The translations under genes were made by a program, and so were the position numbers. From a virus (Duplodnaviria; Heunggongvirae; Uroviricota; Caudoviricetes): a stretch of 64,000 bases of DNA. The DNA is taken from IMG/VR virus record IMGVR_UViG_3300045146_000225, positions 1-64,000 of that record, one strand, 5' to 3'. The notes under the pieces were generated by a model. The model was not told where the DNA came from, did not search any database, and saw only the letters and a list, made by a program, of their open reading frames with translations. Positions 12,709-64,000 of this stretch are shown in pieces (the stretch's first letter is position 1; every line of letters starts with the position of its first letter).

Positions 12709-12783
12709 GTGGATCATATTGGAATCGAACCAATTACCTACTGATTATGAGTCAGCCGCTCTAACCGATTGAGCTAATGATCC
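12709..12783 (-). tRNA. tRNA-Met (anticodon CAT). It could be an elongator, an initiator, or an Ile2 lysidine-type tRNA.
   Basis: rc gives TGGATCA-TTAGCTCAATCGGTTAGAGC-GGCTGACTCATAATCAGTAGG-TAAT-TGGTTCGATTCCAAT-ATGATCCA. That is a 7-bp acceptor stem, D and T arms, a TTCGATT T-loop and a CAT anticodon. No CCA is encoded. Confidence 0.8.
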
Positions 12784-13006: not shown

Positions 13007-13014
13007 AATCACAA
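13007..13014 (-). promoter_or_regulatory. Bacteroidota-type -7 box (TAnnTTTG) facing the tRNA.
   Basis: rc of caaatata is TATATTTG. It is preceded on the transcript by an imperfect hairpin (13040-13075) and a T-run. Confidence 0.4.
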
Positions 13015-13105
13015 AACAAATATACTACTTTTTTTAAATAAAAAACACCGCATGCCTAAAAATATTTTAGGTATGTGGTTCGATTAATAATATTCCTCGT
13101 CAAAC

Positions 13106-13602: not shown

Positions 13603-14805
13603 TCAAATGAAATTGGAAGAAATTACCGTATCGCCTGAGTGGTAATAAGGATGTTTCACCAAAAACATTTGTTTGTATTGGGAACCGTAAGTACCCAAAG
13701 CGAACCGAGCCAGTGAATTTGTCGCACCGACAGTATCGGCATCGCGTGAAACACCACACTTCACACAAACAAATTCTCCCTGACTTGCTCGGTTCGCCTT
13801 CTCCCTGTGGTTACAGTATGGGCATGTAATAGAATTACCATAAGCGGACACTCTCCGAAGAGAGACACCGTTCTCCTCGGTTAGCATTTGAATCCTGCTG
13901 TTTATTCTACCAATAGACCAACCAGTGAGAACAGACCGCATATTTTTACTCAGGCGACCTCTGAGTTTACTCTTGCTTTTTAGTTTACTCTTGCTTTTTA
14001 GTTTACTCTTGTTTTTGATTTTCCGGTTGTCCTCTAGGACAAGCAGCCGTAAAGTATCAAATGGAATCTGCTTTATGGAATGATCTATGTATTCAAGGAT
14101 CTCCTCTCTACACGCATGCCATGCTGTTGAATTTCGTTTCTTACGTTTCAGTTTTTGTAGCAGTGGCATCATTTTTGACCCGTAATGGTTTCCTTCATCG
14201 TCATTGATGACATGTACAGCACCAGGATCTACACCAATGATGTTTCCTTCCGTATTCTTTACTTTTTCACATTCAAATGAAAACTGGACATATTTATCGG
14301 TCAAGATAACCGATGCACACAGCGTCCCTTTAGATTTCCATTTGTTGAACATTTTGTTCTTTTTCAATGGAATTGCCACAGAAACTGCTCTCTCACGTGA
14401 ATCAAAACAACGCAAATCAACCAACAGATCGAATCCTTTCAGTTCTGGATTCAGTTGAATATTTACATTCGTACAGCTAAGTAGAATACGACTCGAATTA
14501 TGATGCGGTCGTGAATATGGCTTGTTCAATTCATCAGCACTGCGTTTGGTTCCAAGAACCAAAGCATGTGCTTCAGCGAATGCATTCTTCTTTGCTCTAG
14601 CGGTCAACCACGATTCGCATCTTGATAGGTTCTCTGCTAACAACAAAGATGGTTTCTTCATTCCATTCAATATATCAGATTCGTGATGCTCGATAGCCCA
14701 GGTCACAACTCTATGCATTTCAGATATGAATTCACGGATCGAAGTCAACTTCGATTCTGTTATCCACTTGCCGAAATGGCATTTTGATGATCTAATGTAT
14801 TTCAT
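13603..14805 (-). CDS. tnpB: IS200/IS605-family TnpB (OrfB) RNA-guided nuclease homolog, full length with an intact RuvC triad.
   Basis: IGVDPG (RuvC-I), LVLEDN (RuvC-II), zinc finger CPYCN...CVKCG, and DADTVGATN (RuvC-III). There is a KSKLKS x3 repeat (18-bp DNA repeat, 13967-14020). Confidence 0.85.
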   Translation of the reverse strand: MKYIRSSKCHFGKWITESKLTSIREFISEMHRVVTWAIEHHESDILNGMKKPSLLLAENLSRCESWLTARAKKNAFAEAHALVLGTKRSADELNKPYSRPHHNSSRILLSCTNVNIQLNPELKGFDLLVDLRCFDSRERAVSVAIPLKKNKMFNKWKSKGTLCASVILTDKYVQFSFECEKVKNTEGNIIGVDPGAVHVINDDEGNHYGSKMMPLLQKLKRKKRNSTAWHACREEILEYIDHSIKQIPFDTLRLLVLEDNRKIKNKSKLKSKSKLKSKSKLRGRLSKNMRSVLTGWSIGRINSRIQMLTEENGVSLRRVSAYGNSITCPYCNHREKANRASQGEFVCVKCGVSRDADTVGATNSLARFALGTYGSQYKQMFLVKHPYYHSGDTVISSNFI

Positions 14806-15111: not shown

Positions 15112-15195
15112 TGTTTAAATTAAAAATAAAAACCTAGTTTATGTTTGGACCCCATTTTAAAATGAAATCACATTGCAAATATACAAATATTTTAG
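15112..15195 (-). repeat. Duplicated promoter and leader cassette, copy A (about 84 bp, about 93 % identical to 16015-16098).
   Basis: Contains TATATTTG (15176-15183, minus) and the shared leader ttaaaatgggRNNcaaacataaactaggtttttatttttaat. Confidence 0.7.
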
Positions 15196-16014: not shown

Positions 16015-16098
16015 TTATCAATTAAAAATAAAAACCTAGTTTATGTTTGCATCCCATTTTAAAATGAAATCACATTGCAAATATACAAATATTTTAAA
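16015..16098 (-). repeat. Duplicated promoter and leader cassette, copy B. It drives 15510-16013.
   Basis: Same sequence as 15112-15195. Confidence 0.7.
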
Positions 16099-16122
16099 TA
16101 AAAACACCGCACACCTAAAAAT

Positions 16123-16359
16123 ATTTTAGCTGAGCTATCTCAGTCTGAGATTTCCCTGCTTGTACTAAACAAGAAATTTGATACCTTTGTTGTTCGGTTA
16201 TATGAACCAAAGTGCAACTTGTTTTTGGGAGACTTAGGGGGGCAATTTAGCAAATATACCCATCAAGGCAAAGAGGTAATTTCTTACCATCTTTGTTTTG
16301 ATGGATATATTTGATTTTTATTACCATTCCCAAAGTTGCATTTACTACTTGAATCTAAG
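16123..16359 (+). repeat. About 225-bp intergenic repeat element, copy 1. It is an IS30-end-like, MITE-like or structured-RNA candidate.
   Basis: About 90 % identical to 37022-37238. It starts attttagctgagc and ends ccaaagttgcatttactacttgaatctaag. Internal hairpins are present, and there is an internal CAAATATA box. Confidence 0.7.
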
Positions 16360-25157: not shown

Positions 25158-25397
25158 ATGAAAGATATTAAACAAATGGAAGTAGAAGAACTTCGTAAAG
25201 AAATGGATGACCTTTGGGGATACTTGTATATGACAAAGGAAACAGGAACGTATGATAAATTTGAATGGAACGGATTAGATTATTGGGATGCTGATAGACG
25301 ATATCACAAAATATCACAAGAAGTTATTCTACGAAGTTTATTAGAACACGCTCTTAGCAGAAGAGAAAATAAAATATCAAAAAGCAAATCAAGATGA
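25158..25397 (+). CDS. Small protein (79 aa), translationally coupled to the C5 methyltransferase by an ATGA overlap.
   Basis: ORF with AT-rich codon usage like the methyltransferase. Confidence 0.45.
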   Translation: MKDIKQMEVEELRKEMDDLWGYLYMTKETGTYDKFEWNGLDYWDADRRYHKISQEVILRSLLEHALSRRENKISKSKSR

Positions 25398-26425
25398 AGT
25401 ATAAATTTATAGACTTATTCGCAGGAATTGGAGGTTTTAGAATAGGCTTTGAAGAAGCAGGTTTTAAATGCGTATTCACATCAGAAATTAATCCTCATTG
25501 CCAACAAGTTTACGAAACAAACTTTGGAGAAAAACCATTTGGGGACATTACCAAAATCAATCCAGCAGATATTCCAGATTTTGATATTTTATTAGGAGGG
25601 TTTCCTTGTCAACCATTTAGCATTTCTGGTAAAAAAATGGGATTTGAAGACACAAGGGGAACTTTGTTTTTTGATATTTGCCAAATAATTGACAGCAAAC
25701 AACCCAAAGTTGTGGTTTTAGAAAATGTAAAACATTTAATACACCACGACAAAGGAAGAACTTTTACAGTTATTATAAAAGCTTTAATGGACTTAGGTTA
25801 CAATGTAGCGCATAAAATATTAAATGCTAAAGATTTCGGACTCCCTCAAAACAGAGAAAGAATTTTTATCATCGCAACAAAAAATCATTATTTTGATTTT
25901 GCTAAATTAAAAAAGAAAAAGAAAGTTATATTAAGAGATTTTTTAGACACTGAAGGCGATTTTGAATTTATAGACAAATCAGAATACACTTTAATTGACA
26001 TTCCTAAAAAACAAGAAAGTGGTCTTTTATTCGTAGGATACAGAAATAAAAACACTTGGAAAAATGGCATTAGGGAAAATACTGAACATCTTTCAAGGGT
26101 TCATCGGCAACCAAACAGAATTTATTCAATCGATGGAAATCATCCTACAATTCCCTCACAAGAAACAACAGGAAGATTTTTTATTTACATTCCAGAATTA
26201 GATGCAGTTAGGAAATTAACATTGAATGAATGTTATAAAATAATGGGCTTTAAGCCAAATTTTAAAAAACATTCAAATGTCGGGGAACAATATAAACAAA
26301 TTGGAAATTCTGTTGCTATTCCAGTGATAAGAGCCATTGCTGAAAGTATAAACGAACAAAAATTATTAATCGATGAATCACAAAGACAAATTGTTGGAGA
26401 TTTACAAACTCTCCTTTTCGCTTAA
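25394..26425 (+). CDS. DNA (cytosine-5) methyltransferase.
   Basis: Motif I FAGIGG, motif IV GFPCQPFS, motif VI ENV, and a C-terminal Q.GNSV motif. Confidence 0.9.
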   Translation: MKYKFIDLFAGIGGFRIGFEEAGFKCVFTSEINPHCQQVYETNFGEKPFGDITKINPADIPDFDILLGGFPCQPFSISGKKMGFEDTRGTLFFDICQIIDSKQPKVVVLENVKHLIHHDKGRTFTVIIKALMDLGYNVAHKILNAKDFGLPQNRERIFIIATKNHYFDFAKLKKKKKVILRDFLDTEGDFEFIDKSEYTLIDIPKKQESGLLFVGYRNKNTWKNGIRENTEHLSRVHRQPNRIYSIDGNHPTIPSQETTGRFFIYIPELDAVRKLTLNECYKIMGFKPNFKKHSNVGEQYKQIGNSVAIPVIRAIAESINEQKLLIDESQRQIVGDLQTLLFA

Positions 26426-29938: not shown

Positions 29939-30847
29939 TTAAAATGCTAATTCCGTTTGAAATTCCAATTTTGGATATTTTTTGTTTGCCTCGTTTCCAT
30001 AATTTGAAATTAAAATGTGGCTTGCGGTAGATTTAAACCGATTCCTAATATTTACAGCATAGGATTTACCATATTCATCAACAATCAAATCATTATACAG
30101 TTTATCTGTTAACGGTGTCCTGCCAATTACCATTAATGCCTTACATTTAAGATTCAAAAAACTAATAGCTAATTCAGCATGGTGTTTTTCGTTAAAACCA
30201 TCTTTATACTCAGCATTTCCATAATCAGAGAAAACGCAATCATAAGGAGGGTCTAAAAACATAAAATCATCTTCGTTTGCCATTTCAAAAATATTCTTGT
30301 AATCCAAATTGTATATTTCTGTATTAGCAAGTAACTCACTGTGTGCTTTGGTTACCAAGGAAGTATTGAGGTTAGCATATCTGCCGTAAGGAACGTTAAA
30401 TTCACCTTTTGCATTATACCTAATCATGCCCGAATACGCAGTTTTATTGATAAAAAAGTACAAAAGAGCATCAGAATATTTCTTTTTTGTCAAATCGTTG
30501 AACATATCACGAATTTGGTAATACAAAGTCTCATTTTCGTCATCAACTCTTAAATCAGGTGTTTCTGCTTTTAACTCTTCAAACTTCCTTCGATTGATTA
30601 AGTATGTTTTCTCTATTTCCTGAAGCTCTTTACTAAGTATCTCAAAATCTGATTTAACTCCTTTGTAAAAAGCCATCAATCTCGAGTTAATGTCGTTTAT
30701 TATAGCATTTTTGGGCTCTAAATGAAAGTACAATGCCCCACCTCCAAAAAAGGGTTCAATATACCTTCCTGTGAAATTGGGAATGTGTTTTATTAAATTA
30801 GGTATTTCCTTCGATTTACCGCCCCTATATTTTACAAGTGGTTTCAT
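29939..30847 (-). CDS. dam: DNA adenine methyltransferase, Dam family (D12 class N6-A).
   Basis: N-terminal YRGGKSK...EPFFGGGALYF and motif IV FLDPPY. Confidence 0.85.
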   Translation of the reverse strand: MKPLVKYRGGKSKEIPNLIKHIPNFTGRYIEPFFGGGALYFHLEPKNAIINDINSRLMAFYKGVKSDFEILSKELQEIEKTYLINRRKFEELKAETPDLRVDDENETLYYQIRDMFNDLTKKKYSDALLYFFINKTAYSGMIRYNAKGEFNVPYGRYANLNTSLVTKAHSELLANTEIYNLDYKNIFEMANEDDFMFLDPPYDCVFSDYGNAEYKDGFNEKHHAELAISFLNLKCKALMVIGRTPLTDKLYNDLIVDEYGKSYAVNIRNRFKSTASHILISNYGNEANKKYPKLEFQTELAF

Positions 30848-31540: not shown

Positions 31541-34500
31541 TCATTGTTCCATTACCTTTTTTACAAGTTTATCAATCTTTTCAAGTTCTTCCGCCAAATG
31601 TTTCTTTAAATCGACTCTTATTTTACCTAATACATGAGCAGTTAAATCACCATCTGGTGGATTTAAAATTATGTATTTAATTGTCTTCTCGTGACAAGTT
31701 TTCCCTAATGTGGCGAGTTCGATGTGAAATTCATCTTTGTCACTAAAGAGAGGAAAATAAACATCTAAGATTTTCTTATGAACGTCTCTTGCCCCAAATA
31801 ATCCTTTTGTTTGGAAGTCTTTCATAAGCAAGTTTGGAATAGATGAATTTAAAATGGATGATAAGTAATATGCTTCATTTTCATCATTTGTATAGCAAGC
31901 GTAGGCTTTGCTTTCATTAATAAAATCAAGGTCTATTTTTGTCCTATCAATTACAAGTGCATTAGCATCTTTTGCAGATGCATTATACAAAACACAAAAC
32001 CTTGCATTTAAATTTTGGTCAGTTAATTTGTTCAACCAGTTCAAATAATCTTCTGCGTTTATTTCACTGTTTTTTTCAGTTTTATTTATATCCCAAATTC
32101 GTTCAGCGTTTACAAACCATTTAGAAGCATTTAAAAATCCTTTATTCATTAAATCTTCAGATGTGTGTAAATGGATTTTTTTTTGCTCGTCACTACTTAA
32201 TTCGACGGTTATCGGTAGAGTGACAAAATCAGGTTTATATAGTAGGAATGGGAGAATTGATTTAGAAATTGCCGTTCGATAGATAAATCTACTTTCAATT
32301 TTACCGGAAAAATCTAATCCTTTCCAAGGAGCTTTTGCATCTGCTTTTATTGAATCTGCCGTTTTTATATTAATAATTCTGTCATTGAAATCATCGGGCA
32401 TTTCCTGATTTAAATCGACAAAATAAAATGCTCTCGGGACAATAGTCGCACCTTGTTTGAAACGGTTCTTATATGGATTCACATTTTCCTGTGAACTAGA
32501 TTTCCTGGTCGAAAATGCTGTTGAGTTTCCTTGCTTTGCATAATACCATGTGACAGTAGATTCAGTTAATTTATTTTTGGCAATATCATAATGACAGTTA
32601 TGAGCCGGTAATCTGCCTGAAAACTGTTTTCCTTCTAAACCGGTTGCCTTTATTTTTCTATCGGCATGTGCCTTTTCAGAGATAAGTACACAACTTGGGA
32701 TTCTGAACAAAGGAGTAACATCTGTTAAATCCCAAATATCTATTAAACGAAATCCTTTGGCGACACCACTTCTTGAATTATCATGATGGTCGGCACTAAA
32801 AAATGCCCTTGGTAAAACAAATGCAATTTTACCTTGGTCTTTTAGAAAATAACTACTGCAATATGACTGAAAAATTGCAGCAATTTCTAAGTGCGGATAA
32901 TTAGCTGCTTTTTTCGGTTTAACATCATATTTGATTGCAAGTTTATCAAGAATGTTTTGATAATCTTCATTTTTTATGGAACTATAAGTAAACCAAGGTG
33001 GGTTTCCAATTATGTAATCAAATTTATTTGCTAAGAAATATGGTTTGTACATGTTAGAAATAATGAATTTCCAGATACTATCACTACCTTTTTCTTTAAC
33101 CTTTTTAAACCCCTGATAAATTTTGTAAAAACTATCGACTAATTGAGGCGTCAAACCACTTGTATGTTGATTTAAAATATTTTCGAAAACTGAATTTTCG
33201 ATATTTTTTTTATCCATTGTCTGTTCCGAAAGTTCCTCGCAGACATCCAGCACGGTATCAAATACTTCACCATTTTCTAATACCTGTGCATTTATCATGT
33301 ACTTATCTTTATCGATGTGCATAATAAATTCACCTCCGAATAAATCCCCAATACATTCTGTAGCAAGTAAGGTATTTGCAAGTATTACATTTAGGTGAAC
33401 AGGTTTTCTTGCTTTTGAAATGGTATTACCTAGAGCAAGAAGCAATGTTGTTTTTGCAATTTGAACTGACAAAGGATGAATATCTATACCATAAACTTGA
33501 TCGTTAATTTCTTCAGGTGTAATTTCTTTATTTGTTTCTCTAATTCGGTGAATTATAGCTCGAAGAAATGAGCCACTTCCACATGAAGGGTCAAGAATTT
33601 TGTCTGTTTTTGTAAATTCAAACTCGTTAACTATTCTTTCACAAAGCCAATCGGGAGTATAGTATTCACCGAGAGAATGACGTGTATCTAAATCAATTAA
33701 TTCCTGATAAACACCTTTGAGAATATCTTCATTAACATTGGTAAAATCAAAGGCTGAAATCTCTTGAGCTATTAATCGAAATACTTTTTTAAGCTTTGGA
33801 TAATCGCGGTCCCCGTTTACCCAATGAAAAAAATCATTGTCGACAAAGTTGGAAATATTGTAAGTATGGAAAATGCTACCGTCCAAAACTTTCCGCATTT
33901 CATCATCATCGATATAATCATCATTTGATACAACAGCATATGCAATCATTTTAGAAAATACGCTCAAATACGTATGGATTAAAAAGATATCTTCACGAGC
34001 ATCAAATGAACCGTATGCGATACTAAGAAACTTATGCCATTGTTCATACGAAACTTGAATTACTCCATATTTTTTAGCTTCGTTAAACCAATTATTCAGT
34101 TCTCGAAAAGATTCAATAAAAACTGGACTTTGATATCCAAAAGCTTCTTCTATACTTTTTAAAGTCGCTTTTTGTTTTTCTTCTTTGAATAAAAACCTGT
34201 CAAGCCAATAGTAAAACTCTTCTGAATTGGTTTCATTTAGTACAAAAGATGCACTTTCTACCTCATTCAGGATTAGTTCATGTCCCAATAAAGAATCCAG
34301 TTTATCCAAACAACTAACATCTGGTGCAACGACTTTCCAATTGATAAAGTCCGATGCAATCAATGTGAAATTATACCCGACACCAGATTTGAATTGTCCA
34401 AGTAAATAGCATGCTAATTGTTCTTTGGCATGATTATATGTTGCTTTTAAATCATTCTCAAATTCTATGATAATGGTATTGAACAAAGTATCAGCACTGC

Positions 34501-34705
34501 CACGATGTAACTTGTCCTCACGGGGGATGTTAACTATTGTAGCTTCAGCACCAAGTGTAATTTTATCAATTATTTTTTGAATTTCCTTGTCAGAGGAATA
34601 AAGCCCATTCAATAAATCTTTAAACGCTTCTTTTTTAGTCAATTCATTATTTGAGGCTTTAACCTTTTGATAATATTGTCGAATAAGCTCTTTTTTATCT
34701 ATCAT
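31541..34705 (-). CDS. Type IIL (MmeI-like) restriction-modification fusion protein. It has an N-terminal PD-(D/E)xK nuclease, a gamma-class N6-adenine methyltransferase and a C-terminal target-recognition region.
   Basis: N-terminal GSADTLFNTIIIEFENDLK, motif I DPSCGSGSFL, motif IV GNPPW. Length 1054 aa. Confidence 0.75.
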   Translation of the reverse strand: MIDKKELIRQYYQKVKASNNELTKKEAFKDLLNGLYSSDKEIQKIIDKITLGAEATIVNIPREDKLHRGSADTLFNTIIIEFENDLKATYNHAKEQLACYLLGQFKSGVGYNFTLIASDFINWKVVAPDVSCLDKLDSLLGHELILNEVESASFVLNETNSEEFYYWLDRFLFKEEKQKATLKSIEEAFGYQSPVFIESFRELNNWFNEAKKYGVIQVSYEQWHKFLSIAYGSFDAREDIFLIHTYLSVFSKMIAYAVVSNDDYIDDDEMRKVLDGSIFHTYNISNFVDNDFFHWVNGDRDYPKLKKVFRLIAQEISAFDFTNVNEDILKGVYQELIDLDTRHSLGEYYTPDWLCERIVNEFEFTKTDKILDPSCGSGSFLRAIIHRIRETNKEITPEEINDQVYGIDIHPLSVQIAKTTLLLALGNTISKARKPVHLNVILANTLLATECIGDLFGGEFIMHIDKDKYMINAQVLENGEVFDTVLDVCEELSEQTMDKKNIENSVFENILNQHTSGLTPQLVDSFYKIYQGFKKVKEKGSDSIWKFIISNMYKPYFLANKFDYIIGNPPWFTYSSIKNEDYQNILDKLAIKYDVKPKKAANYPHLEIAAIFQSYCSSYFLKDQGKIAFVLPRAFFSADHHDNSRSGVAKGFRLIDIWDLTDVTPLFRIPSCVLISEKAHADRKIKATGLEGKQFSGRLPAHNCHYDIAKNKLTESTVTWYYAKQGNSTAFSTRKSSSQENVNPYKNRFKQGATIVPRAFYFVDLNQEMPDDFNDRIINIKTADSIKADAKAPWKGLDFSGKIESRFIYRTAISKSILPFLLYKPDFVTLPITVELSSDEQKKIHLHTSEDLMNKGFLNASKWFVNAERIWDINKTEKNSEINAEDYLNWLNKLTDQNLNARFCVLYNASAKDANALVIDRTKIDLDFINESKAYACYTNDENEAYYLSSILNSSIPNLLMKDFQTKGLFGARDVHKKILDVYFPLFSDKDEFHIELATLGKTCHEKTIKYIILNPPDGDLTAHVLGKIRVDLKKHLAEELEKIDKLVKKVMEQ

Positions 34706-37771: not shown

Positions 37772-38350
37772 ATGCGGCTAATAGAAACAACAATATTGGA
37801 ATACATCAACCCAATTAAAAAAACAGACGTGTTTTACCACGGATCAACAGACAAAAACATGAGCGGTAAGAACGGCATACATGTCGGAACTAAATTAGCA
37901 GCAACACAAGCACTACAAGCAAGGATAGGTGTTCCGGCAGAAGGTGAATGGGATGGCACAAGAGCATACGGTGAAACGCTGTTGGCTGGTAGAAAAACAC
38001 TTGAACTTAAAAACACGGAGTTAGGATACAACTGCACTACCGGATATAATTGCGGGAAAGATTTACCAGAAGAAGATTATTATCCCACACAAAGAGAATA
38101 TAGAGCGTCATTCTCAGATGGAACCCCCATTCCGTTCAATTGCAAACCAATCGTGTTCCCTGTTAAAATCACAGGACAAATGACAAACACGCAATCTTAC
38201 CCCCACACCGACGACAAAGCAAACTCCATGATGAAAAGGAACTTAAAAATGGGCAACGCTAAAAGTGGTTACTACTACACCAATATAGCGCAGGATTCCG
38301 GCTCGATATCTGCGGTAGTCCCAGACAAGTCATTCCTCGAAATACTGTAA
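37772..38350 (+). CDS. Hypothetical protein (192 aa).
   Basis: ORF. A terminator hairpin follows. Confidence 0.5.
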   Translation: MRLIETTILEYINPIKKTDVFYHGSTDKNMSGKNGIHVGTKLAATQALQARIGVPAEGEWDGTRAYGETLLAGRKTLELKNTELGYNCTTGYNCGKDLPEEDYYPTQREYRASFSDGTPIPFNCKPIVFPVKITGQMTNTQSYPHTDDKANSMMKRNLKMGNAKSGYYYTNIAQDSGSISAVVPDKSFLEIL

Positions 38351-42808: not shown

Positions 42809-43756
42809 TTAATTTGAAACGTGACTATCCACGAGCGACTTGAAAATGTGTGCTATTACATCGACAGTCCATCCGTTTCCAAGCATATTGTATCTTTCGG
42901 TATCCGTAACAACTCCAGTATAATTATCTGGCACAGTCTGTAATCTTTCAACTTCAACCGGTGTTAATCTTCTGTAATAACCAAGAACATCGAATATTTC
43001 AACTAACGCTTTTGGATAAAAATTCTTACCGGTGCTGTGTGCTAATTCAGTAGTTAATGTAGGTACTTTACCGGTCGCTTTATAACTTTTAGGTAAAAAC
43101 TTCATTAATGTTTCAACTCTTTCATCTTTAATGTTGTATTTAACATCCACGACTGGCTCTAATATATCTTTTAGCGTAACATTGGTTTTAGTTGGTTTAA
43201 CAACATTGGGTATATTTGTCCAATAATATCTCGGTCTATTCTGTGCTGTAATATCACCACTGCAAATGAACACAGGTTCAAGACCAATAGCATCACTCAA
43301 TACCTTTTTCCATTTATCGCTCATTTTAACGTTTTCCAATAAGAAATATCTTGGCTTTAAAATAGTCAAAGCATACATATATTCCCAAAACAAGTAGGAT
43401 TGCCCTTGAAATTCAAAACCATTATTCTTCAGCGATAGATAATGCTCCAATGTCAATATCTCAACATTATCTTTTGTCGTCATGCCATTTCGTTTACCAG
43501 CGAATGAAAAGGATTGACACGGACTCCCTCCGATTAATAAATCAATCTTGGGTAAATTATCGTAATTGATGTTCTTCACATCACCAAGCTGTATCGTTTT
43601 AGGATAATTGGATTGTGTTACCTTCATCGCTGGTTTGTTAATCTCACTCGCAAAATAGTTTTCGTATTCGATACCAACTCGATTAAGAGCTATTTGACCA
43701 CACGATTGCCCGTCAAACAAACTAAGCACATTCGTTATTTTTTCCATATTATACAA
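42809..43756 (-). CDS. DNA (cytosine-5) methyltransferase, the second one in the window.
   Basis: Motif I LFDGQSCG, motif IV GGSPCQSFSFAGKR, motif VI LLENV. Confidence 0.85.
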   Translation of the reverse strand: MYNMEKITNVLSLFDGQSCGQIALNRVGIEYENYFASEINKPAMKVTQSNYPKTIQLGDVKNINYDNLPKIDLLIGGSPCQSFSFAGKRNGMTTKDNVEILTLEHYLSLKNNGFEFQGQSYLFWEYMYALTILKPRYFLLENVKMSDKWKKVLSDAIGLEPVFICSGDITAQNRPRYYWTNIPNVVKPTKTNVTLKDILEPVVDVKYNIKDERVETLMKFLPKSYKATGKVPTLTTELAHSTGKNFYPKALVEIFDVLGYYRRLTPVEVERLQTVPDNYTGVVTDTERYNMLGNGWTVDVIAHIFKSLVDSHVSN

Positions 43757-44824: not shown

Positions 44825-46009
44825 TTACTTTAGAAAATCAAAGTACACTTGTTTCCCTATAACGTCAACATCGGTGACACACACCAGCTTGTAAACGTCG
44901 AGGTACTTCTTGATTGAATTGTGCGGGATGTTAAGGGTACACGCTGGTTTACCACCTGATAATATCACGAATTGCTGTGTTTTCTCGCTGTACTCGTAAT
45001 CGTACTCACCACCGACAAGCTTGTTCTTGTACTCCTGGTAACACAACGATGTCTGGTCAACGCTCTCAGCGTTTAAAGTAAGGTTTATCCTGTACTCGCC
45101 ATTATCTTTGATAGACACGTTCTTGATGTATATATCAACCTCGTCGCCTGACCTTAAATGCCTTGTTTCCTCATTGTAATCCTTGAAGTCGAACATGTGG
45201 ACAAGCCCGGTGAATATACCCTCGAACTCTATGAACAGACCTATCTTGCTCGGGTTACTCGTCAGCGTTCCACGGTATCGCTTACCGAACTCTAGGTTGT
45301 TGATTCTCTTGGGGATTTCATTCTTGATAAACTTCTTGTGGGAAACGACGAACAGGTTGGAGAACTTGTCGAAATTATCGACCATTACACTAACGGTCTT
45401 GCCTATGTACGACTCGAAATTGTATATCACGTTAGGTGCTGCGTGTGCACCAGGTAAGAAGCAATCGACGTTGGAGTTGTACTTTGCTATGAAACCACCC
45501 TTGACGAGTTCAACGATCTTGACATCGAACGGCGTATTCTCCTTGTGTAATTTACCTAACACGTCAAAAGATTCTACCTTCTGGTATTTCTTTATGGAAC
45601 CATAGATGGCACCGTTGGCGTTGAGCGTGGTTATAACTTTAAACGAAGTCCGTGACATCATGTCAACATCACTCGTTTTGAACTCGGAAAATGGTACGAT
45701 AACTAATGTTTTACTTGATAATTCCTCGCAATAAGCCATTTTATTATCAACATCGAGTTTTTTGATACTAACCGAGTAAATATCACCGGATACAAGATCC
45801 TTACTCGCGACATTTAAACAACCACTTACACGGTTGTACTTGTTGTATAATTCTTGAGCGTAACTTTCCTTGCACAGTATTCTTGTGTTGCTGTTATCAT
45901 CCTTATGTAATTTAACATTGGTATTATACTTACATTTAGGTTGGTCGAAAAGGTAATCAAATTGCGGGTCTGGTAAAACCAGAGTGAAACCGTTTTTAAA
46001 TTTAGCCAT
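44825..46009 (-). CDS. Protein with about four S1 (OB-fold) RNA-binding domains, resembling ribosomal protein bS1.
   Basis: GTLTSNPSKIGLFIEFEGIFTGLVHMFDF...LRSGDEVDIYIKNVSIKDNGEYRINLTL and three further G..V.G.V blocks. Confidence 0.45.
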   Translation of the reverse strand: MAKFKNGFTLVLPDPQFDYLFDQPKCKYNTNVKLHKDDNSNTRILCKESYAQELYNKYNRVSGCLNVASKDLVSGDIYSVSIKKLDVDNKMAYCEELSSKTLVIVPFSEFKTSDVDMMSRTSFKVITTLNANGAIYGSIKKYQKVESFDVLGKLHKENTPFDVKIVELVKGGFIAKYNSNVDCFLPGAHAAPNVIYNFESYIGKTVSVMVDNFDKFSNLFVVSHKKFIKNEIPKRINNLEFGKRYRGTLTSNPSKIGLFIEFEGIFTGLVHMFDFKDYNEETRHLRSGDEVDIYIKNVSIKDNGEYRINLTLNAESVDQTSLCYQEYKNKLVGGEYDYEYSEKTQQFVILSGGKPACTLNIPHNSIKKYLDVYKLVCVTDVDVIGKQVYFDFLK

Positions 46010-46077
46010 TTAAAAAGATTTAAAAATTAATACTAAATATTTAACGTTTTAATATATTAAATAATTATTTTTTCGAG

Positions 46078-46200
46078 AGTAAAATTTCACTTTTTAAACT
46101 AAAAAATTATTTTTTTGGAAGCAAAATTTCACTTTTTAAACTAAAAATTTATTTTTTTGAAAGTAAAATTTCACTTTTTTAAACTAAAAATTTATTTTTA
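46078..46200. repeat. 3 x 41-bp direct repeats (gtaaaatttcactttttaaactaaaaatttatttttttg).
   Basis: Seen directly in the sequence. Confidence 0.85.
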
Positions 46201-46467
46201 CACACAGGTACACATGCACACAGGTACACACACGTACATGCGCACACATGCACACACATGCACACACGTACATGCGCACACATGCACACACGTACATGCG
46301 CACACATGCGCACACGCATTTATATATAATACTAGTATTATATATAAATGTATATAAATATAATTAATATAATTAAATATAAATTAAATATAATAAGTAT
46401 AATAAGTATAAATTAAATATAATAAATATAATAAGTATAATAAGTATAATAAGTATAATATTCGCGC

Positions 46468-47070
46468 GCGGACGTACGTATGCAAGACGTGGTTTTTTTT
46501 TCGAGTTCGGTCATAAAACAAAAACCAAGAAACTACAAATAACAGCAGCATACATTCCTTTCGAACAGAAACGATGTTTTTTTCAATTCAAATACAAAAA
46601 CAGTACATTGACACGTCTTAATATGTTTTATTCGATTTAAACGCATTTATGAACGTCGGTTTTTTCGTGTTTTTGAAACCAACAAGATTTTTCACAAAAA
46701 AAACATGCCTCGCACACGCGGACGTACGTATGCAAGACGTGGTTTTTTTTTCGAGTTATTTTTCACAAAAAAAACATGCCTCGCACACGCGGACGTACGT
46801 ATGCAAGACGTGGTTTTTTTTTCGAGTTCGGTCATAAAACAAAAACCAAGAAACTACAAATAACAGCAGCATACATTCCTTTCGAACAGAAACGATGTTT
46901 TTTTCAATCCAAATACAAAAACAGTACATTGACACGTCTTGATGTGTTTTATTCGATTTAAACGCATTTATGAGCGTTTGTTTTTTTCGTGTTTTTGAAA
47001 AACCAACAAGATTTTTCACAAAAAAAAACATGCCTCGCACACGCGGACGTACGTATGCATGGCATGTTTT
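46468..47070. repeat. Two roughly 250-bp direct repeat units, each preceded by a GC-rich palindromic core and followed by A-run / hairpin / T-run elements.
   Basis: Spacing of core copies is 250, 71 and 254 bp. The units are more than 95 % identical. Confidence 0.85.
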
Positions 47071-47319
47071 TTCCGTTATTTTAAAAACTATTGGAATTTA
47101 ACAACGACCCAAAATGGAATGTATGTAACTTAACGATGGTTTCTTGTGCGTATCAAAAAAACAAGTTTTCTTACCCTAAATGCGAGTGTAGCGTGAATTT
47201 CTACACGAGAGATGCCGTTTCTTTCCTGTGCGAGAATAAACGTAACAAATTGACAACCACTTGTTAAAAAAAACAAAAATATATTTAATTGCATTTAGCA
47301 TTTTTTAATAAAAAAGTAG

Positions 47320-47327
47320 TATATTTG
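47320..47327 (+). promoter_or_regulatory. TATATTTG box for the helicase gene.
   Basis: aaaaagtagtatatttgcag. Confidence 0.5.
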
Positions 47328-47383
47328 CAGTAGCAAAATATACAATCAAATTGTTTGAGTTCAACGTCATAGCGAATTGCCAG

Positions 47384-48910
47384 ATGATCCAATGCGTCAA
47401 AGCCCCTTCCGAGAAGGAATACAAGGCTTTGAAGAAGCATTTCAGCCTTAGACAGAAGGGGTATTTCCTTAAACCTGCGTTCAGGAAAGGTTTCTGGGAC
47501 GGGTACGACCACTTCTTCAACGACGTTTACCTACCGATAGGGTTGTGGGGCGAGTTGCAGGATTACGTGGTATCGAACGGGTACGATTTCAACATAAACG
47601 GGCTAGACAAGTTCTTGAACTTCACCCTCGATAGGGATATGGTGTTTGATTTCATAGCAACTTTGTTTGAGAACACGGGTATAAACCCTAGGTGGTACCA
47701 GTACGAGTCGATTTACAGGATTTTGAAGTACAGGTACTCTGCGCAGCAGCTATCAACATCTTCCGGCAAGACGATGATATCTTTCGCCGTGTACGCTTAC
47801 CTTAAACACACAGGTGCGGTTGACAAGAATAACAAGTTCCTTATGATTGTGCCTAGGAGCGGGCTTGTGAAGCAGACTTACGAGAAGTTCATAGGCGGTT
47901 ACGACAACGGGACCGTAAAGGTCGAGGCGATGATGGTAGGTGGTGGCGTGAAGTTCGACATCGACATGTTCAACAATTGCGATTGCGTCATCTCGACGTA
48001 CCAGTCGTTGAACAACCTGCCGTTATCCTTGTTCTCGAAGGTCAAGACCATAAACGTGGACGAGGCTCATACTGCCAAGACGGAATCAATATGCAGTATA
48101 ATAAAGGCAAGTACGCCGCTGAGGTACAGGTTCGGGTGTTCTGGTACTCTCGTCGAGGCACGTGGGTATTCTGAATATTACAAGAACCTCGAGCAGCTTG
48201 GGCCGCTCACTATGGTCTACGACGCGAAGGACTTGATTGATGATGGTTACGCGCCGAACGTTAAAATAATCCAGCTTCACCTCGATTATTCGAGGAGGAT
48301 GCAGGAGGGTAACATCTCGGGGTACATGGAGTACAGGAGAAAGAAGCCGAGCCCCAACACTGACGAGGAGCTGATTTACTTCAAGTCGTTGTACACCATA
48401 GAGCGCGACATGATATTGAACGACGAGATAAGGTTCAACGCTATAATGAATTATGTCATGGGGTTGGACAAGAACACGCTCATACTTTTCAATGATGTCA
48501 AGAACGAACACGGCGTCAGGATATGCCAGTACTTGGGTGACCGAGGTGTCACGTGCGATTACATAGACGGTGGTACTAAGAACTCGGACAGGGAACTTTA
48601 CATATCAAAGATAGAGGGCAGTAGCAAGATGATGCTCGTCGCATCGTACGGCACGTTCTCGACAGGTATAGACTTGAAGAACGTGCATTACATAGTTGAG
48701 ATGGAATCGTTCAAGTCACCAACGCTCATAGGCCAGAGCATAGGGCGCGGCTTACGTGAGTTCAAGGGCAAGAAGGAGGTCGTTATCATAGACGTTATCG
48801 ATGGGCTGTACAAGCATACTGTTAACCAGAGCAAGGATAGGGAGAAGCTGTACAACAAGCAGGATTACTCGATAGAGAGGGTGGATATCGTGCTTGATGT
48901 GAAAAATTAA
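47384..48910 (+). CDS. SF2 DEAH-box DNA helicase (UvsW-like role suggested by context). The ORF track uses a TTG at 47351; the ATG at 47384 is the more likely start.
   Basis: Walker A SSGKTMISFAVYAY. Motif II INVDEAHTAK. Motif VI-like GQSIGRGLR. Confidence 0.75.
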   Translation: MIQCVKAPSEKEYKALKKHFSLRQKGYFLKPAFRKGFWDGYDHFFNDVYLPIGLWGELQDYVVSNGYDFNINGLDKFLNFTLDRDMVFDFIATLFENTGINPRWYQYESIYRILKYRYSAQQLSTSSGKTMISFAVYAYLKHTGAVDKNNKFLMIVPRSGLVKQTYEKFIGGYDNGTVKVEAMMVGGGVKFDIDMFNNCDCVISTYQSLNNLPLSLFSKVKTINVDEAHTAKTESICSIIKASTPLRYRFGCSGTLVEARGYSEYYKNLEQLGPLTMVYDAKDLIDDGYAPNVKIIQLHLDYSRRMQEGNISGYMEYRRKKPSPNTDEELIYFKSLYTIERDMILNDEIRFNAIMNYVMGLDKNTLILFNDVKNEHGVRICQYLGDRGVTCDYIDGGTKNSDRELYISKIEGSSKMMLVASYGTFSTGIDLKNVHYIVEMESFKSPTLIGQSIGRGLREFKGKKEVVIIDVIDGLYKHTVNQSKDREKLYNKQDYSIERVDIVLDVKN

Positions 48911-51041: not shown

Positions 51042-52388
51042 ATGAGTAACGGTTTGAGTTTTAATTTTTCATCTGTGCAGACAACTGATTTTTCTAATGG
51101 TGGTGGGTACCAGCAGGATTCAAACTTGTGGCAGTGTAAATCGTCTAACGGTAAGAACAACGAGTACGATGCTATCATCAGGTTTCTTCCGTACATGTTC
51201 GACATCAACAAGTCGAAGTACACTAAGAACATAGTTAGTGTTAAGAACCCCATGAATCCAAAGGAATTCTTAGTTTTTGATTGTCCTAGGAACAATGGTA
51301 AGGCTTCTATTTTCAGTAATTTGAACGAAATACTGAGAACAATCGTTAATAATAACAATAAACATGACACTGCCGAGACTGCTGAAATCAAGAAATGGTT
51401 CAGCAGGTATATGCAGTCACATTCTATTGTTTATATCATGACTGACAATTTTAACCCTTCTAACCAGAACACGGTTAAGATTTTCAAGTATGGTTCAAAG
51501 ATTAACGATATATTGACTGACGCCGAGAAGGGTACCGGTACTATCAAGCCTTTCAAACCTTTTGACTTGGTTAACGGTAAGGATTTCTACTACATCGCGA
51601 AGAAGGGATTCGATACGTATGACAAGTATGATGGTGCGAGGTTCATGGATAATAACAAGCCTTTCCAGTTCTTATTGCCTGACGGTTCTATGTATTATGT
51701 TGCCCAAGAGCATTTGAACGCGATAGAGGCTGGTCATACAGCGAACCAACCTATCGTGTGGTTGTACAACGAGATTGTTCCGAAGATGGATGCTTATTTC
51801 CACAAAGACCCATCGCAGGAGACAATCGCTAAGGCTTGTGGTTATCTACGTATTATCCTTAGCAGATTCCCAGGTATCTACAACAAGTTGATTGAAGTTA
51901 CCAATGATGATTTCGCTAAATCTTGTCTTGTTAATGCCGTTGGTCAAGCATCTCATTTTCAAATACCAACTGTTGGTAACACTCAGTTCGATATAAACAC
52001 TAACCAGGTCGTTGAGAACAATGCTGCGCAATTTACCCAGCAGCCTGCTCAACAGCAAGTGCAGCAACCTGTTCAACAGCAACAGTGGTCTCAGCCAGCA
52101 CCACAACAAGTGCAGCAGCCTGTTCAACAGCAGTGGTCTCAACCTGCACCACAACAAGTGCAGCAACCTGCTCAACAGCAATGGACTCAACCTGCACCAC
52201 AACAAGTGTATCAACCTGCTCAACAGCAACAGTGGTCTCAACCAGCACCACAGATGCCTAGTTTAGATGGTGGTTTCGCACCTCAGCCAGCAATGCAGCA
52301 TCAACCAAAGAATGATTTATCATTCCTAGATGCTCCGCAAGAAGTTAATATTGATCCAAGATTCGCAAACGCGATGTCAACGCTGTAA
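51042..52388 (+). CDS. Single-stranded DNA-binding protein, T4 gp32-like, with an inserted Gln/Pro-rich tandem repeat before the C-terminal tail.
   Basis: NGKNNEYDAIIRFLPY aligns with T4 gp32 GNGQAVIRFLPS. There are 4 x QQP.QQQ(Q)WSQPAPQQVQQP repeats (DNA 52020-52260). Confidence 0.65.
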   Translation: MSNGLSFNFSSVQTTDFSNGGGYQQDSNLWQCKSSNGKNNEYDAIIRFLPYMFDINKSKYTKNIVSVKNPMNPKEFLVFDCPRNNGKASIFSNLNEILRTIVNNNNKHDTAETAEIKKWFSRYMQSHSIVYIMTDNFNPSNQNTVKIFKYGSKINDILTDAEKGTGTIKPFKPFDLVNGKDFYYIAKKGFDTYDKYDGARFMDNNKPFQFLLPDGSMYYVAQEHLNAIEAGHTANQPIVWLYNEIVPKMDAYFHKDPSQETIAKACGYLRIILSRFPGIYNKLIEVTNDDFAKSCLVNAVGQASHFQIPTVGNTQFDINTNQVVENNAAQFTQQPAQQQVQQPVQQQQWSQPAPQQVQQPVQQQWSQPAPQQVQQPAQQQWTQPAPQQVYQPAQQQQWSQPAPQMPSLDGGFAPQPAMQHQPKNDLSFLDAPQEVNIDPRFANAMSTL

Positions 52389-54630: not shown

Positions 54631-55818
54631 ATGAAGCAATATTTAGATTTACTATCGCATATCCTTGAAAACGGGTACAAGAAGTCTGACAGGACTGGCA
54701 CGGGTACTATTTCTTCTTTCGGACACCAGATGAGGTTCGATCTGTCAGAGGGTTTCCCTCTGTTGACCACGAAGAAGTTACATACTAAATCAATATTCGC
54801 CGAGTTGTTGTGGTTCATAAGCGGCGATACTAACAACAACAACCTGGTTAGCGATGGTGTGAAGATATGGAACGAGTGGGCTGATAAAAACGGTAATCTC
54901 GGTAAGATTTATTCAGCTCAGTGGAGGTACGTTAAGTCCACAAGCGGGAGGTTTATACCGGTTGATAAGAAACACCCAGTTCACGTCGATTACAAGTACG
55001 AACCAGCGATAGCGTTGAAGCGCGGTAAGAATGTTGATATAGTTTACAACCTATGGGCTACGATCATGAACGCTTGTCATTGTACATCGTATGGTTTGTA
55101 TAATGTATATGGTGGTTATGGTGTTACGGTTAACCCAGAATGGCACAATTTAGGTAGGTTTATCAAAGATATAAGTAAAATAAAGGGGTATTCTTATTGG
55201 ATTAAAGATCCTAAAAGATACGAGTTATCGTATAACTACTTCGGTGCGGCACAGTACGGTAAAGATACATCTATATTCGTTGACCGTAGGTGTAATTATT
55301 TAAAACATGTTGAAACTGAAGGATATTGTTTATATAGGGAAGAAGAATGGATAGACCAGCTCGATGTCGCTATAAACGATATAAAGAACAACTCCGATTC
55401 GAGGAGGATAATAGTCAATTCTTGGAACGTATCCGAGCTTGATGACATGGCTTTACCGCCGTGCCATTCGTTCTTCCAGTTCTACGTCGCTGGTGGTAAG
55501 CTATCTTGCCAGATGTACCAGAGGAGCGGTGACATGTTCCTCGGTGTCCCTTTCAACATAGCTTCTTATGCTTTGTTAACACACATGGTTGCCAAGGAAT
55601 GCGGTCTTGAAGTCGGTGAGTTCATCCATACGCTTGGTGATGCTCACATATACATGAACCACGTGGAGCAATGCAAGATGCAGTTAAAGAGGGATACAAG
55701 GGAGTTACCTAGGCTTGTTCTAAGTGATGGTGTTGGTTTCTTCGATTACACGTTGGATGATATACGCATCGAGGGGTACGACCCACACCCGCATATAAAG
55801 GGTGATGTTAGTGTTTAA
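54631..55818 (+). CDS. thyA: Thymidylate synthase (ThyA family) with a roughly 110-aa insertion in the small domain.
   Basis: DRTGTGT, QWR, catalytic [12 protein letters not shown], and [15 protein letters not shown] (Asn gives dUMP specificity). It is 395 aa against roughly 265-315 for typical enzymes. Confidence 0.85.
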
Positions 55819-55822
55819 ACAA

Positions 55823-55856
55823 AAAGGGTGTTGTTTTTAAAAACAACACCCTTTCC
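55823..55856. terminator. Bidirectional terminator between thyA (+) and the acidic-protein gene (-).
   Basis: aaagggtgttgttttt aaaa acaacaccctttcc, a perfect 14-16-bp stem. Confidence 0.75.
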
Positions 55857-63036: not shown

Positions 63037-64000
63037 ATGGCAAAAGCAAGTGCTTTCGAGAAATTAAATTCAATGGTGTCCAAGAAGCTGGACGATGGTA
63101 AGAACGGGTTCAGGATATTCGAGAGGTTCGGTAAGGTCACCGACTACATATCCTTGAACAACTACATGTTGAACGCCCAGATTTCAGGTGATTTGTTCCT
63201 CGGTTTACCCAACACGCGGAGCTTGGAGTGGGCTGGTAAATCTGGTACAGGTAAGACTATAATGTGCCTGAACATGATGCAGGATGCCCAGCGTAAGGGT
63301 TACTGTATTTATTACATCGATACCGAGGGTGCGATAGACGAGGGCCAGTTCGATAACTTCGGTATAGATGACTCGCCCAGTTGCTTGCAGCACATCCGTA
63401 ACATAAGCACGTTCGAGAAGCTGATAGAGTGTGTTAACACCATCATCGACAACGTTCGCAAGGTGCGTGCCGAATTGTCGGAAGACGAGGAGATGAAGGT
63501 GATGATAGTGATAGACTCTATCGGCATGTTGAACGCGTCCACCGCTCTCGAAAATGCGCTTAAAGGCAAGTACGCCGAGGACATGGGTAAGCGTGCCAAG
63601 CTCACTAAGGAGCTTTTCAGGAATATAACACTGCCTTTGTCGAACCTTGGTATCCCGCTCGTGTTCACCAACCACACGTCCAACAGCCTCGATTTATTCG
63701 CGATCGACAAAGAGGTTATGTCTTCAGGCGAGGGACCAACGTTCGCGGCTAGTTTCATCACGCTTCTCGGCAAGGCCAACTACCTTAAAGAGGAATCTGG
63801 CGACGGTGAGAAGAACAAGACAGGCGTGTTGTTGCGTGCTAGGAGTCACAAGAACCGTGGTGTTGTTCCAATGGATGTGAAGTTCCACTTGTCTTGGAAA
63901 AAAGGTATGAATCCTTATGTCGGGTTAGACCAGTTCATAGGGTGGGATAACTGCGGTGTTGATTTCGGGACGATAATGACAAAGGTTGACTTCGACAAGA
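63037..64000 (+). CDS. uvsX: UvsX/RecA-family recombinase, 3'-partial (it runs off the window).
   Basis: Walker A GKSGTGKT. DSIGMLNASTALENALKGKYAEDMGKRAKLTKELFRNITLPLSNLGIPLVFTNHT aligns with T4 UvsX DSLGNLASKKETEDALNEKVVSDMTRAKTMKSLFRIVTPYFSTKNIPCIAINHT. Confidence 0.8.
   Translation, partial: MAKASAFEKLNSMVSKKLDDGKNGFRIFERFGKVTDYISLNNYMLNAQISGDLFLGLPNTRSLEWAGKSGTGKTIMCLNMMQDAQRKGYCIYYIDTEGAIDEGQFDNFGIDDSPSCLQHIRNISTFEKLIECVNTIIDNVRKVRAELSEDEEMKVMIVIDSIGMLNASTALENALKGKYAEDMGKRAKLTKELFRNITLPLSNLGIPLVFTNHTSNSLDLFAIDKEVMSSGEGPTFAASFITLLGKANYLKEESGDGEKNKTGVLLRARSHKNRGVVPMDVKFHLSWKKGMNPYVGLDQFIGWDNCGVDFGTIMTKVDFDK

Follow-up and report, generated by a model that had tools for sequence, protein, structure and literature searches.

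The 64,000-nt stretch of phage DNA analyzed here (Caudoviricetes; IMG/VR record IMGVR_UViG_3300045146_000225, positions 1 to 64,000; hereafter the window) contains a 1.37-kb region, positions 46010-47383, between the start of a minus-strand gene for a bS1 homolog and a plus-strand gene for a UvsW-type helicase. We propose, tentatively and with somewhat less than even confidence, that this region is a candidate control region of a bidirectional replication origin located within a divergent promoter region of a large T4-like phage. Strand composition, promoter direction and gene direction all reverse at the region. Within it, an AT-rich block (46313-46462) is flanked by a phased array of 42-bp repeats, a 96-bp tract predicted to be prone to Z-DNA formation and a 34-bp palindrome. 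Three putative leftward terminators lie on the right side of the region, and the replication and recombination genes sit on the right arm.

The gene content is that of a large T4-like myovirus, as far as the sequence tells. The window encodes a 935-aa tail sheath, an NAD-dependent ligase, ribonucleotide reductase (RNR), thymidylate synthase (ThyA), a 5'-3' exonuclease, a single-stranded DNA-binding protein (SSB, phrog_224), several DNA methyltransferases and large, probably structural proteins without assigned function; a RecA-family recombinase, Cpn10, a family B polymerase and a DnaB-family helicase follow beyond its right end. No close relative was found among 50,697 phage records, and the nearest protein matches (25-32% identity) come from huge metagenomic phages and Prevotella Lak phages. 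The host is probably a member of the Bacteroidota, which we infer from the promoter motif GTATATTTG. More than 10 contigs at about 99.8% identity represent the same phage, and eight assemblies span the region.

Strand composition, promoters and the AT-rich left half

Skew was computed over 71.7 kb, made up of the window and a 7.7-kb extension from a contig with 99.96% identity; the genome measures at least 120 kb. GC skew is negative from 1 to 46 kb and positive from 47 kb onward, including the whole extension, and the raw cumulative G-C minimum lies at 47410. Since this switch coincides with the switch in gene direction, we measured the skew at third codon positions gene by gene on the top strand, fitting orientation and side of the region jointly; the open reading frame (ORF) 63205-63675 was left out of the regression because it lies inside the RecA-family recombinase gene. 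The third-position GC skew (GC3) of the top strand was as follows.

Left of the region, plus-strand genes: -0.12
Left of the region, minus-strand genes: -0.01
Right of the region, plus-strand genes: +0.085
Right of the region, minus-strand genes: +0.22

The four best GC3 breakpoints fall between 44.1 and 46.8 kb, and none of 1000 permutations did as well, either for GC3 or for the corresponding TA skew (TA3). Genes facing the region carry reversed skews, which fits a replication-associated bias and not a purely transcriptional one. A sequence-only reading of this DNA, which had called the region an origin, named a skew inflection as a check, and the check came out in its favor: the cumulative minimum lies at 47410, and GC3 and TA3 flip at 44-47 kb independently of gene orientation. 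G and T are in excess on whichever strand would be the leading one for a fork travelling away from the region. In bacteria the G/T excess marks the leading strand, and the polarity seen here is thus origin-like and not terminus-like. Among huge phages, about 30% of the genomes have a skew that points to bidirectional replication (PMC7162821).

Promoter direction follows the same divide. The motif GTATATTTG occurs 15 times in the window (1.06 expected), mostly in intergenic positions with an A-run upstream; left of the region these promoters lie mostly on the minus strand, and right of it all are on the plus strand. The motif fits the Bacteroidota -7 promoter consensus, TAnnTTTG. The promoter of the helicase gene (47294-47331, plus strand; -7 box GTATATTTG at 47319-47327, preceded by an A-run) scores 30.8 bits and ranks among the best matches to the promoter matrix. 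It is the sole strong promoter of the region and points away from the AT-rich block. Facing the CA-rich tract described below, only weak -7-like boxes were found (8-13 bits vs. 30.8 bits for the helicase promoter). A scan for sigma-70-type promoters gave fewer matches than shuffled sequences.

The region is also the largest gene-free gap of the window (1341 nt vs. 736 nt for the runner-up), and the two least stable duplex segments of the window both lie inside it. Its left half contains the following features, with no strand assigned to any of them.

46058-46199: 42-bp direct repeats, 3.4 copies, 91% matches, 21-bp half-period, TRF score 226
46199-46316: CA-rich tract (CACACRTR-like), periods 24 and 34
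46313-46462: candidate DNA-unwinding element, made up of the palindrome and the 9-bp array
46317-46350: AT-rich palindrome, 34 bp, perfect, centre CTAG, cruciform-capable, the longest in the window
46339-46460: 9-bp array (TATAATAAR), 12.8 copies, including five ATAATAAGT

For every window size tried, from 50 to 200 bp, no duplex in the 64 kb is less stable than the AT-rich block (-85.7 kcal per 100 bp; mean -130.7, standard deviation 9.7), which bears out the earlier description of an unwinding-element-like stretch. The five ATAATAAGT repeats were counted correctly in that description, and the palindrome around CTAG is present and perfect, with a length of 34 bp in place of the 26 bp given. 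A single copy of the T4 late-promoter motif TATAAATA in the block is not informative.

The 42-bp array has a GC content of about 17% and is the second least stable duplex in the window. Its A- and T-tracts are phased at 10.5/21 bp, the strongest such phasing in the window, and the DNA is therefore probably intrinsically bent. The array had been reported as three 41-bp repeats; it is real, with a period of 42 bp and 3.4 copies. It is a candidate either for an iteron or architectural array or for an AU-rich leader of the bS1 gene. An apparent extra copy at 507-557 was rejected, as the resemblance is partial and limited to AT-richness.

In the CA-rich tract, where imperfect 24-bp repeats had rightly been noted, a perfect run of alternating pyrimidines and purines extends over 96 nt (46224-46319); the runner-up in the 64 kb measures 16 nt. 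By its sequence pattern, such a run is expected to be Z-DNA-prone. The top strand of the tract carries 43 C and 20 G, so that a leftward transcript would be G-rich and R-loop-prone. A 66-aa ORF (46157-46357) overlies the tract, in agreement with the earlier view that the long ORF is an artefact of the CA repeat and that the region has no coding capacity. We also considered the tract as a decoy for restriction sites and rejected this, since no avoidance of its 4-bp palindromes is seen elsewhere, and the sites that are avoided, GATC and GGCC, do not occur in the region. Across the whole window, GATC and GGCC are strongly avoided (observed/expected 0.25 and 0.17), and at least four DNA methyltransferases are encoded (25394-26425, 29939-30847, 31541-34705 and 42809-43756), which together suggests heavy anti-restriction pressure on the phage.

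The right half: repeated units and predicted terminators

To the right of the AT-rich block, a 321-bp unit is repeated, followed by a unique spacer (strand given where assigned).

46467-47082: 321-bp unit, 1.9 copies, 95% identity, framed by a 71-bp cassette
46467-46501: cassette copy 1, truncated GC core plus T9; hairpin on neither strand (z +1.65 on both)
46502-46686: body of repeat unit 1; no conserved ORF, no Rfam match
46687-46757, minus strand: cassette copy 2; stem 46707-46738, 13 pairs including 4 G.U, then U8
46758-46828, minus strand: cassette copy 3, a perfect duplicate of copy 2; stem 46778-46809
46829-47010: body of repeat unit 2, 95% identical to unit 1
47011-47082: cassette copy 4; 3' end diverges (after GCA in the core), hairpin 47029-47066 between A-run and T-run
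47083-47293: unique, non-repeated spacer of 210 bp

In the cassette, a GC hairpin stands between an A-run and a T-run; the cassette is perfectly duplicated at 46687-46828. Its 17-nt GC core, GCGGACGTACGTATGCA, occurs four times (0.10 expected) and nowhere else in the window. The full cassette folds well on the minus strand (-27 kcal/mol, z -4.6), where the stems are followed by a run of U8-9; the plus strand has A.C mismatches in place of the G.U pairs and does not fold better than shuffled sequences (-14.5 kcal/mol, z -0.7). Such a difference between the strands points to selection acting on an RNA of the minus strand. Copy 4 folds on both strands (plus, -21.9 kcal/mol, z -4.1; minus, -31.6 kcal/mol, z -6.6). 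A stable GC-rich hairpin followed by a U-run on the transcribed strand, as in intrinsic terminators, is thus found on the minus strand, and we predict three tandem leftward intrinsic terminators, copy 4 being bidirectional. Since the DNA upstream of them holds no gene on the minus strand, their role must be either to end short non-coding transcripts or to insulate what is on their left. A weak leftward TAnnTTTG box (47281-47274, minus strand) is the sole candidate leftward promoter and could feed them. The GC-rich core had been described as a palindrome present four times and framing two repeats of roughly 250 bp. The four copies and the two repeats stand, the latter as a 321-bp unit in 1.9 copies, while the core is not a DNA palindrome and pairs well only as minus-strand RNA, and its first copy is truncated and forms no hairpin.

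On the minus strand, the unit bodies fold modestly better than shuffles (z -2.0 to -2.3). Searches of Rfam 15 at gathering and permissive thresholds gave no match in the region beyond low-complexity miRNA-type noise on the CA-rich tract; the sole gathering-level match of the window is its sole tRNA, a tRNA-Met (CAU) at 12709-12783 (minus strand). For a Cys-rich ORF of 58 aa in the spacer (47091-47267, plus strand), neither PHROG nor tblastn against phages gave a match, and gene calling placed no gene there in the eight spacer-spanning assemblies. The region as a whole has no match among the 50,697 phage records (megablast and blastn), and the GC core, the core of the 42-bp repeat and the CA-rich tract have no exact match in IMG/VR.

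We also considered the cassette core as a mimic of a CRISPR repeat. Among 241 million JGI metagenome records, 33 single-copy matches were obtained, a number compatible with chance, and no arrays; it follows that the phage is absent from that collection and that the core is not a CRISPR repeat. The "spacers" between the hairpin repeats are identical 250-bp units.

Strain variation, relatives and rival explanations

Strains at 99.8% identity differ in the region almost only by repeat copy number. The 42-bp repeat is present in 2, 3 or at least 8 copies; its cores (TTTCAC and TTCTAA) are mixed among strains, which may argue against a sequence-specific iteron, and its A/T-tract part is constant. 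The alternating tract measures 72 or 96 nt, one strain being without a 24-bp unit, and the AT array shows an 18-bp insertion/deletion polymorphism. One 71-bp cassette (copy 3) is missing in some strains. The 321-bp unit occurs once or twice, and two independent assemblies lack a whole unit, perhaps by real deletion, perhaps by assembly collapse; part of the copy-number variation may likewise be due to short-read collapse. The arrangement in two units is seen again in independently assembled contigs of different samples and is therefore not a mis-assembly. All element types are kept, with at least one copy each, in all eight region-spanning strain-level assemblies. Many other assemblies end inside the region, at differing repeats. 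The variable-number repeats offer a ready strain marker.

Relatives were compared at nine loci with helicase or bS1 homologs (37-63% identity). None of them (helicase 52-63%, bS1 37-47% identical) shows a divergent arrangement or an adjacent gap of at least 250 nt. The bS1 gene lies there directly behind a gene of 1150-1297 aa and the helicase gene behind one of about 155 aa, with gaps below 100 bp, and the order is bS1, a small gene, then RNR or SSB, all in a single direction. Because the neighbors differ and no long gap exists, conservation in these relatives is unusable for or against a function of the region. The block from bS1 to RNR is inverted relative to the loci L021 and L024 of relatives, which places the region at an inversion breakpoint. 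The conserved pre-helicase gene of about 155 aa does not correspond to the 153-aa gene of the window and was not found elsewhere in the window. Two independent contigs (L015 and L016) of a relative at 59% identity both end about 40-46 nt upstream of the small gene before the helicase, which may mean that a repeat region was left unassembled there. In a related phage (L017, 1913-4360, and L018, 1912-4357), a Cpn60/GroEL-like gene beside the helicase is interrupted by a LAGLIDADG-type segment and appears as an 815-aa fusion or as two ORFs, suggesting an intein or a homing-endonuclease insertion.

Several of these observations weigh against an origin, namely the copy-number differences between nearly identical strains, the mixed cores of the 42-bp repeat, the lack of a divergent arrangement or long gap in relatives and the inversion breakpoint; the region is lineage-specific. 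Further points add to them. For TA3, the 46.8-kb breakpoint is only second best, marginally behind one at 26 kb. The orientation-independent component of the skew rests on 13 head-on genes, and with a genome of at least 120 kb the minimum at 47410 can count only as a local one. No strong promoter facing the AT-rich block was found, and no Rep-type initiator was recognized among the ORFs searched, both neighbors of the region included. The region holds no strict DnaA box (TTATCCACA-like); of 14 relaxed matches (TTWTNCACA) in the window four fall in the region, all on the plus strand, three of these are copies of one cassette (in copy 2, TTTTTCACA at 46688-46696, plus strand), and the window-wide count is not above chance. 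T4-like phages use several origins and then recombination-dependent replication, so that a single dominant origin is not guaranteed (PMC3016281). The origin claim of the sequence-only reading thus survives in part: the skew inflection and the unwinding element hold, whereas the helicase argument fails, the presumed iteron core varies between strains and no initiator was recognized. That reading had also named hypervariability and dispensability in relatives as grounds for giving up the claim. Half of this came true, in that copy number varies among 99.8%-identical strains and no comparable region stands beside the homologous genes of relatives.

Read differently, the region would be non-coding spacer DNA that arose at the junction of an inversion or rearrangement and evolves fast, combining only ordinary expression signals (the helicase promoter, a presumed bS1 promoter and insulating terminators) with slippage-prone repeats. 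The compositional switch would then mark the meeting of gene blocks that differ in history and transcription direction. The other neighbors and short gaps of the bS1 and helicase genes in relatives, the inverted bS1-RNR block, strains that vary almost only in repeat copy number, assemblies that break at different repeats and the lack of similar sequence in the phage records, or of the three tested motifs in IMG/VR, all agree with such a spacer. It leaves unexplained why head-on genes on both sides carry reversed third-position skews, why the window's extremes of melting, purine/pyrimidine alternation and palindrome length coincide, and why all element types persist in every strain. The junction is also compatible with an origin, as bacterial chromosomes are known to have rearrangement breakpoints at their origins. 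We regard a mere junction spacer as possible but rather unlikely. A small-RNA locus in the right half (46467-47290), which is likewise compatible with an origin, seems improbable to us. Units 1 and 2 would each yield one of a pair of paralogous leftward RNAs, about 250-300 nt long, and a third, unique RNA of about 200 nt would run leftward from 47270 to 47023; a strong minus-strand terminator would end each of the three. The strand-specific hairpins (4 G.U in 13 pairs, then U8-9), the lack of an upstream minus-strand gene to terminate, the weak box at 47281-47274 and the modest minus-strand folds speak for it, as do differences between the units in a small internal hairpin that keep pairing (two G.U) on the minus strand only. 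Against this stand the missing Rfam family, the lack of a convincing promoter before either unit, the truncated, non-folding cassette at the end of unit 1 and the unit missing in two independent assemblies (deletion or collapse); just two near-identical copies exist, which leaves no basis for covariation.

For the 42-bp repeats alone (46058-46199), a role in the bS1 gene of the phage, as its 5' leader or its translational operator and not as iterons, has a precedent in bacterial rpsA, which is autoregulated by binding of S1 to its own AU-rich leader without a Shine-Dalgarno sequence. Between the array and the bS1 start codon lie 48 nt, no Shine-Dalgarno sequence can be seen, and the gene product has multiple S1 domains. 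We nevertheless consider this role very improbable: no promoter was found upstream of the array, neither strand folds significantly (z -0.97 and +0.27), the bS1 genes of relatives have upstream gaps of 48-96 bp without repeats, and the idea accounts for only about 10% of the region. Some linear phage genomes end in non-coding, repeat-rich regions, and several contigs stop inside the region, as physical genome ends or a packaging site (pac/cos or terminal repeat) would predict. Those stops, however, lie in different repeats (42-bp array, CA-rich tract, 321-bp unit), as expected from repeat-induced assembly breaks. Eight assemblies read through with identical flanks, no terminase gene is nearby, and T4-like phages package by headful without fixed ends (PMC3016281), all of which makes a genome end scarcely credible.

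Flanking genes, proposed mechanism and comparison with known systems

The two genes that border the region each head a block of their own.

44825-46009, minus strand: bS1 homolog, 394 aa, several S1 domains; leads the leftward gene block
47384-48910, plus strand: UvsW-type SF2 helicase, 508 aa from ATG; heads the rightward replication/recombination block

The bS1 homolog matches Pfam S1, bS1 chains in the PDB (E 5e-12) and, below the curated cut-offs, the NCBIfam models for 30S ribosomal protein S1 (E 3e-21). Other metagenomic phages and Prevotella Lak megaphages also encode homologs (24-47% identity). The helicase carries the Pfam domains UvsW_N (PF21241), ResIII, DEAD and Helicase_C and belongs to phrog_16; besides the ATG at 47384, a TTG at 47351 is a possible start. 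Downstream of it follow SSB (phrog_224), the 5'-3' exonuclease and ThyA, and farther rightward the RecA-family recombinase, the family B DNA polymerase and the DnaB-family helicase. Small ORFs near the region have no family match. The sequence-only reading had taken the adjacent SF2 helicase as part of an origin signature. T4 UvsW unwinds origin R-loops and branched recombination intermediates and is not an initiator (PMC3016281). As UvsW dismantles origin R-loops rather than initiating, the adjacency of a UvsW-type helicase is no evidence for an origin, and that argument had to be dropped; the other neighbor is the bS1 homolog.

Additional elements were observed in the right arm and elsewhere in the window. 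The ThyA gene (54631-55818, plus strand) encodes 395 aa, about 120 aa more than usual; an HNH endonuclease-like segment (about residues 135-225) splits the ThyA domain halves and could be an in-frame homing-endonuclease or intein-like insertion. Between the convergent genes for ThyA and a 224-aa protein lies a perfect 32-bp palindrome, AAAGGGTGTTGTTTTTAAAAACAACACCCTTT (55823-55854), which looks like a bidirectional terminator. The SSB-like gene (51042-52388) contains in-frame tandem repeats at 52038-52252 (periods 24, 48 and 99 nt) that encode a Q/P-rich segment. In the left arm, a 400-aa ORF (13603-14805, minus strand) matches the phage transposase families phrog_506 and phrog_12300 and is surrounded by short dispersed repeats (13007-13070, 15118-15194 and 16020-16129; 77 bp at 97% and 64 bp at 84%), which include promoter-like GTATATTTG cassettes; together they may form a mobile element within the phage genome. 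Two other dispersed repeat pairs were found: 16123-16359/37022-37238 (237 bp, 85%), which lies in non-coding gaps of 403 nt and 736 nt (the latter the second largest), and 36748-36823/37930-38005 (76 bp, 97%), with one copy inside a 192-aa ORF (37772-38350). A 207-bp tandem repeat (1497-1981, 2.3 copies, 85% matches) lies inside a 641-aa ORF with no known function (1111-3036, minus strand), which adjoins very large, probably structural proteins (1985 aa and 1192 aa).

Returning to the candidate origin, the initiation mechanism that we infer as a whole would run as follows. Divergent transcription would generate negative supercoiling, under which the AT-rich block would open as an unwinding element. 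The repeat arrays, the Z-DNA-prone tract and the palindrome would act as architectural, supercoil-responsive or other non-B DNA and not as Rep-binding iterons. Given the T4-like replication genes and the lack of a recognized initiator, T4-like priming is more likely, either from a transcript held as an R-loop or from recombination intermediates. The terminators would keep leftward read-through out of the origin and the bS1 gene, or set the 3' ends of RNAs. A more elaborate version would be a composite origin that senses supercoiling, a type not described in phages: the 96-bp Z-DNA tract and a 34-bp cruciform would flank the unwinding element and gate its opening, a G-rich leftward transcript in an R-loop would serve initiation, and the UvsW-type helicase would later remove it. 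Taken jointly, these steps are a long shot; if true, the region would be a functional phage counterpart of the mitochondrial control region, variable-number repeats included.

It is very rare for the origin of a large uncultured phage to be located, and the present lineage is without an isolate. A defined candidate could anchor coverage-based estimates of phage replication in situ, serve as a start for replicons or engineering tools for Bacteroidota phages, and test whether the initiator-free firing of T4-like phages extends to this clade. If it is not an origin, the region is an ordinary, repeat-rich divergent control region at a rearrangement junction.

Among known systems, the T4 origins oriE, oriF (ori-uvsY) and oriG are the closest functional analogs. 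Each is placed where transcription diverges and base composition shifts at the same point (PMC3016281), and the region, too, is located at a transcriptional divergence with a shift in strand composition. The phage shares with T4 a UvsW-type helicase, SSB, exonuclease, recombinase, polymerase and DnaB-family helicase, and no Rep initiator was found. T4 oriE has evenly spaced iterons or direct repeats whose role is unproven (PMC3016281); these measure 12 nt, whereas those of the region measure 42 bp. T4 oriF lies 0.9 kb from uvsW on its 3' side, whereas the region lies 5' of the helicase gene. In addition, oriF and oriG are compact, with a middle promoter and an unwinding element in or beside genes, unlike the gene-free 1.37 kb found here, and the T4 origins have no sequence similarity to the region.

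Iteron-type theta origins (lambda ori, P1 oriR, R6K, RK2, pSC101 and the satellite PLE) resemble the region in their phased repeats (here 21/42 bp) beside an AT-rich unwinding element and in their bent DNA. At least three direct repeats in helical phase and an adjacent AT-rich unwinding element are present here, while an adjacent or overlapping initiator gene, the defining feature of the class, was not recognized among the ORFs searched, the neighbors being the bS1 homolog and the UvsW-type helicase; therefore, we do not class the region as a classical iteron origin. In PLE, a non-coding region with multiple repeats is the proven origin (PMC7145576), and the region shares with it several repeat families within one non-coding stretch. 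Unlike iteron origins, the region has no recognized initiator in cis, a repeat core that differs between strains, relaxed DnaA boxes only and a repeat unit twice the usual iteron length. The 71-bp cassettes, for their part, resemble bacterial intrinsic terminators in their GC-rich hairpin followed by U8-9, the upstream A-run making the last copy bidirectional; they differ in that three occur in tandem, with no upstream gene on the same strand and inside a duplicated 321-bp unit.

The closest architectural resemblance is to the animal mitochondrial control region (D-loop), a single long, non-coding, AT-rich stretch at a switch of strand asymmetry, which likewise contains variable-copy tandem repeats, dinucleotide-type tracts, hairpins and termination-associated sequences. 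There, a transcript primes replication through a G-rich R-loop. The replicon and its enzymes are unrelated to those of the phage, where priming by a transcript is our proposal. If the region is an origin, it is plausibly of an ordinary kind, more similar to the origins of T4 or to the mitochondrial control region than to Rep/iteron systems.

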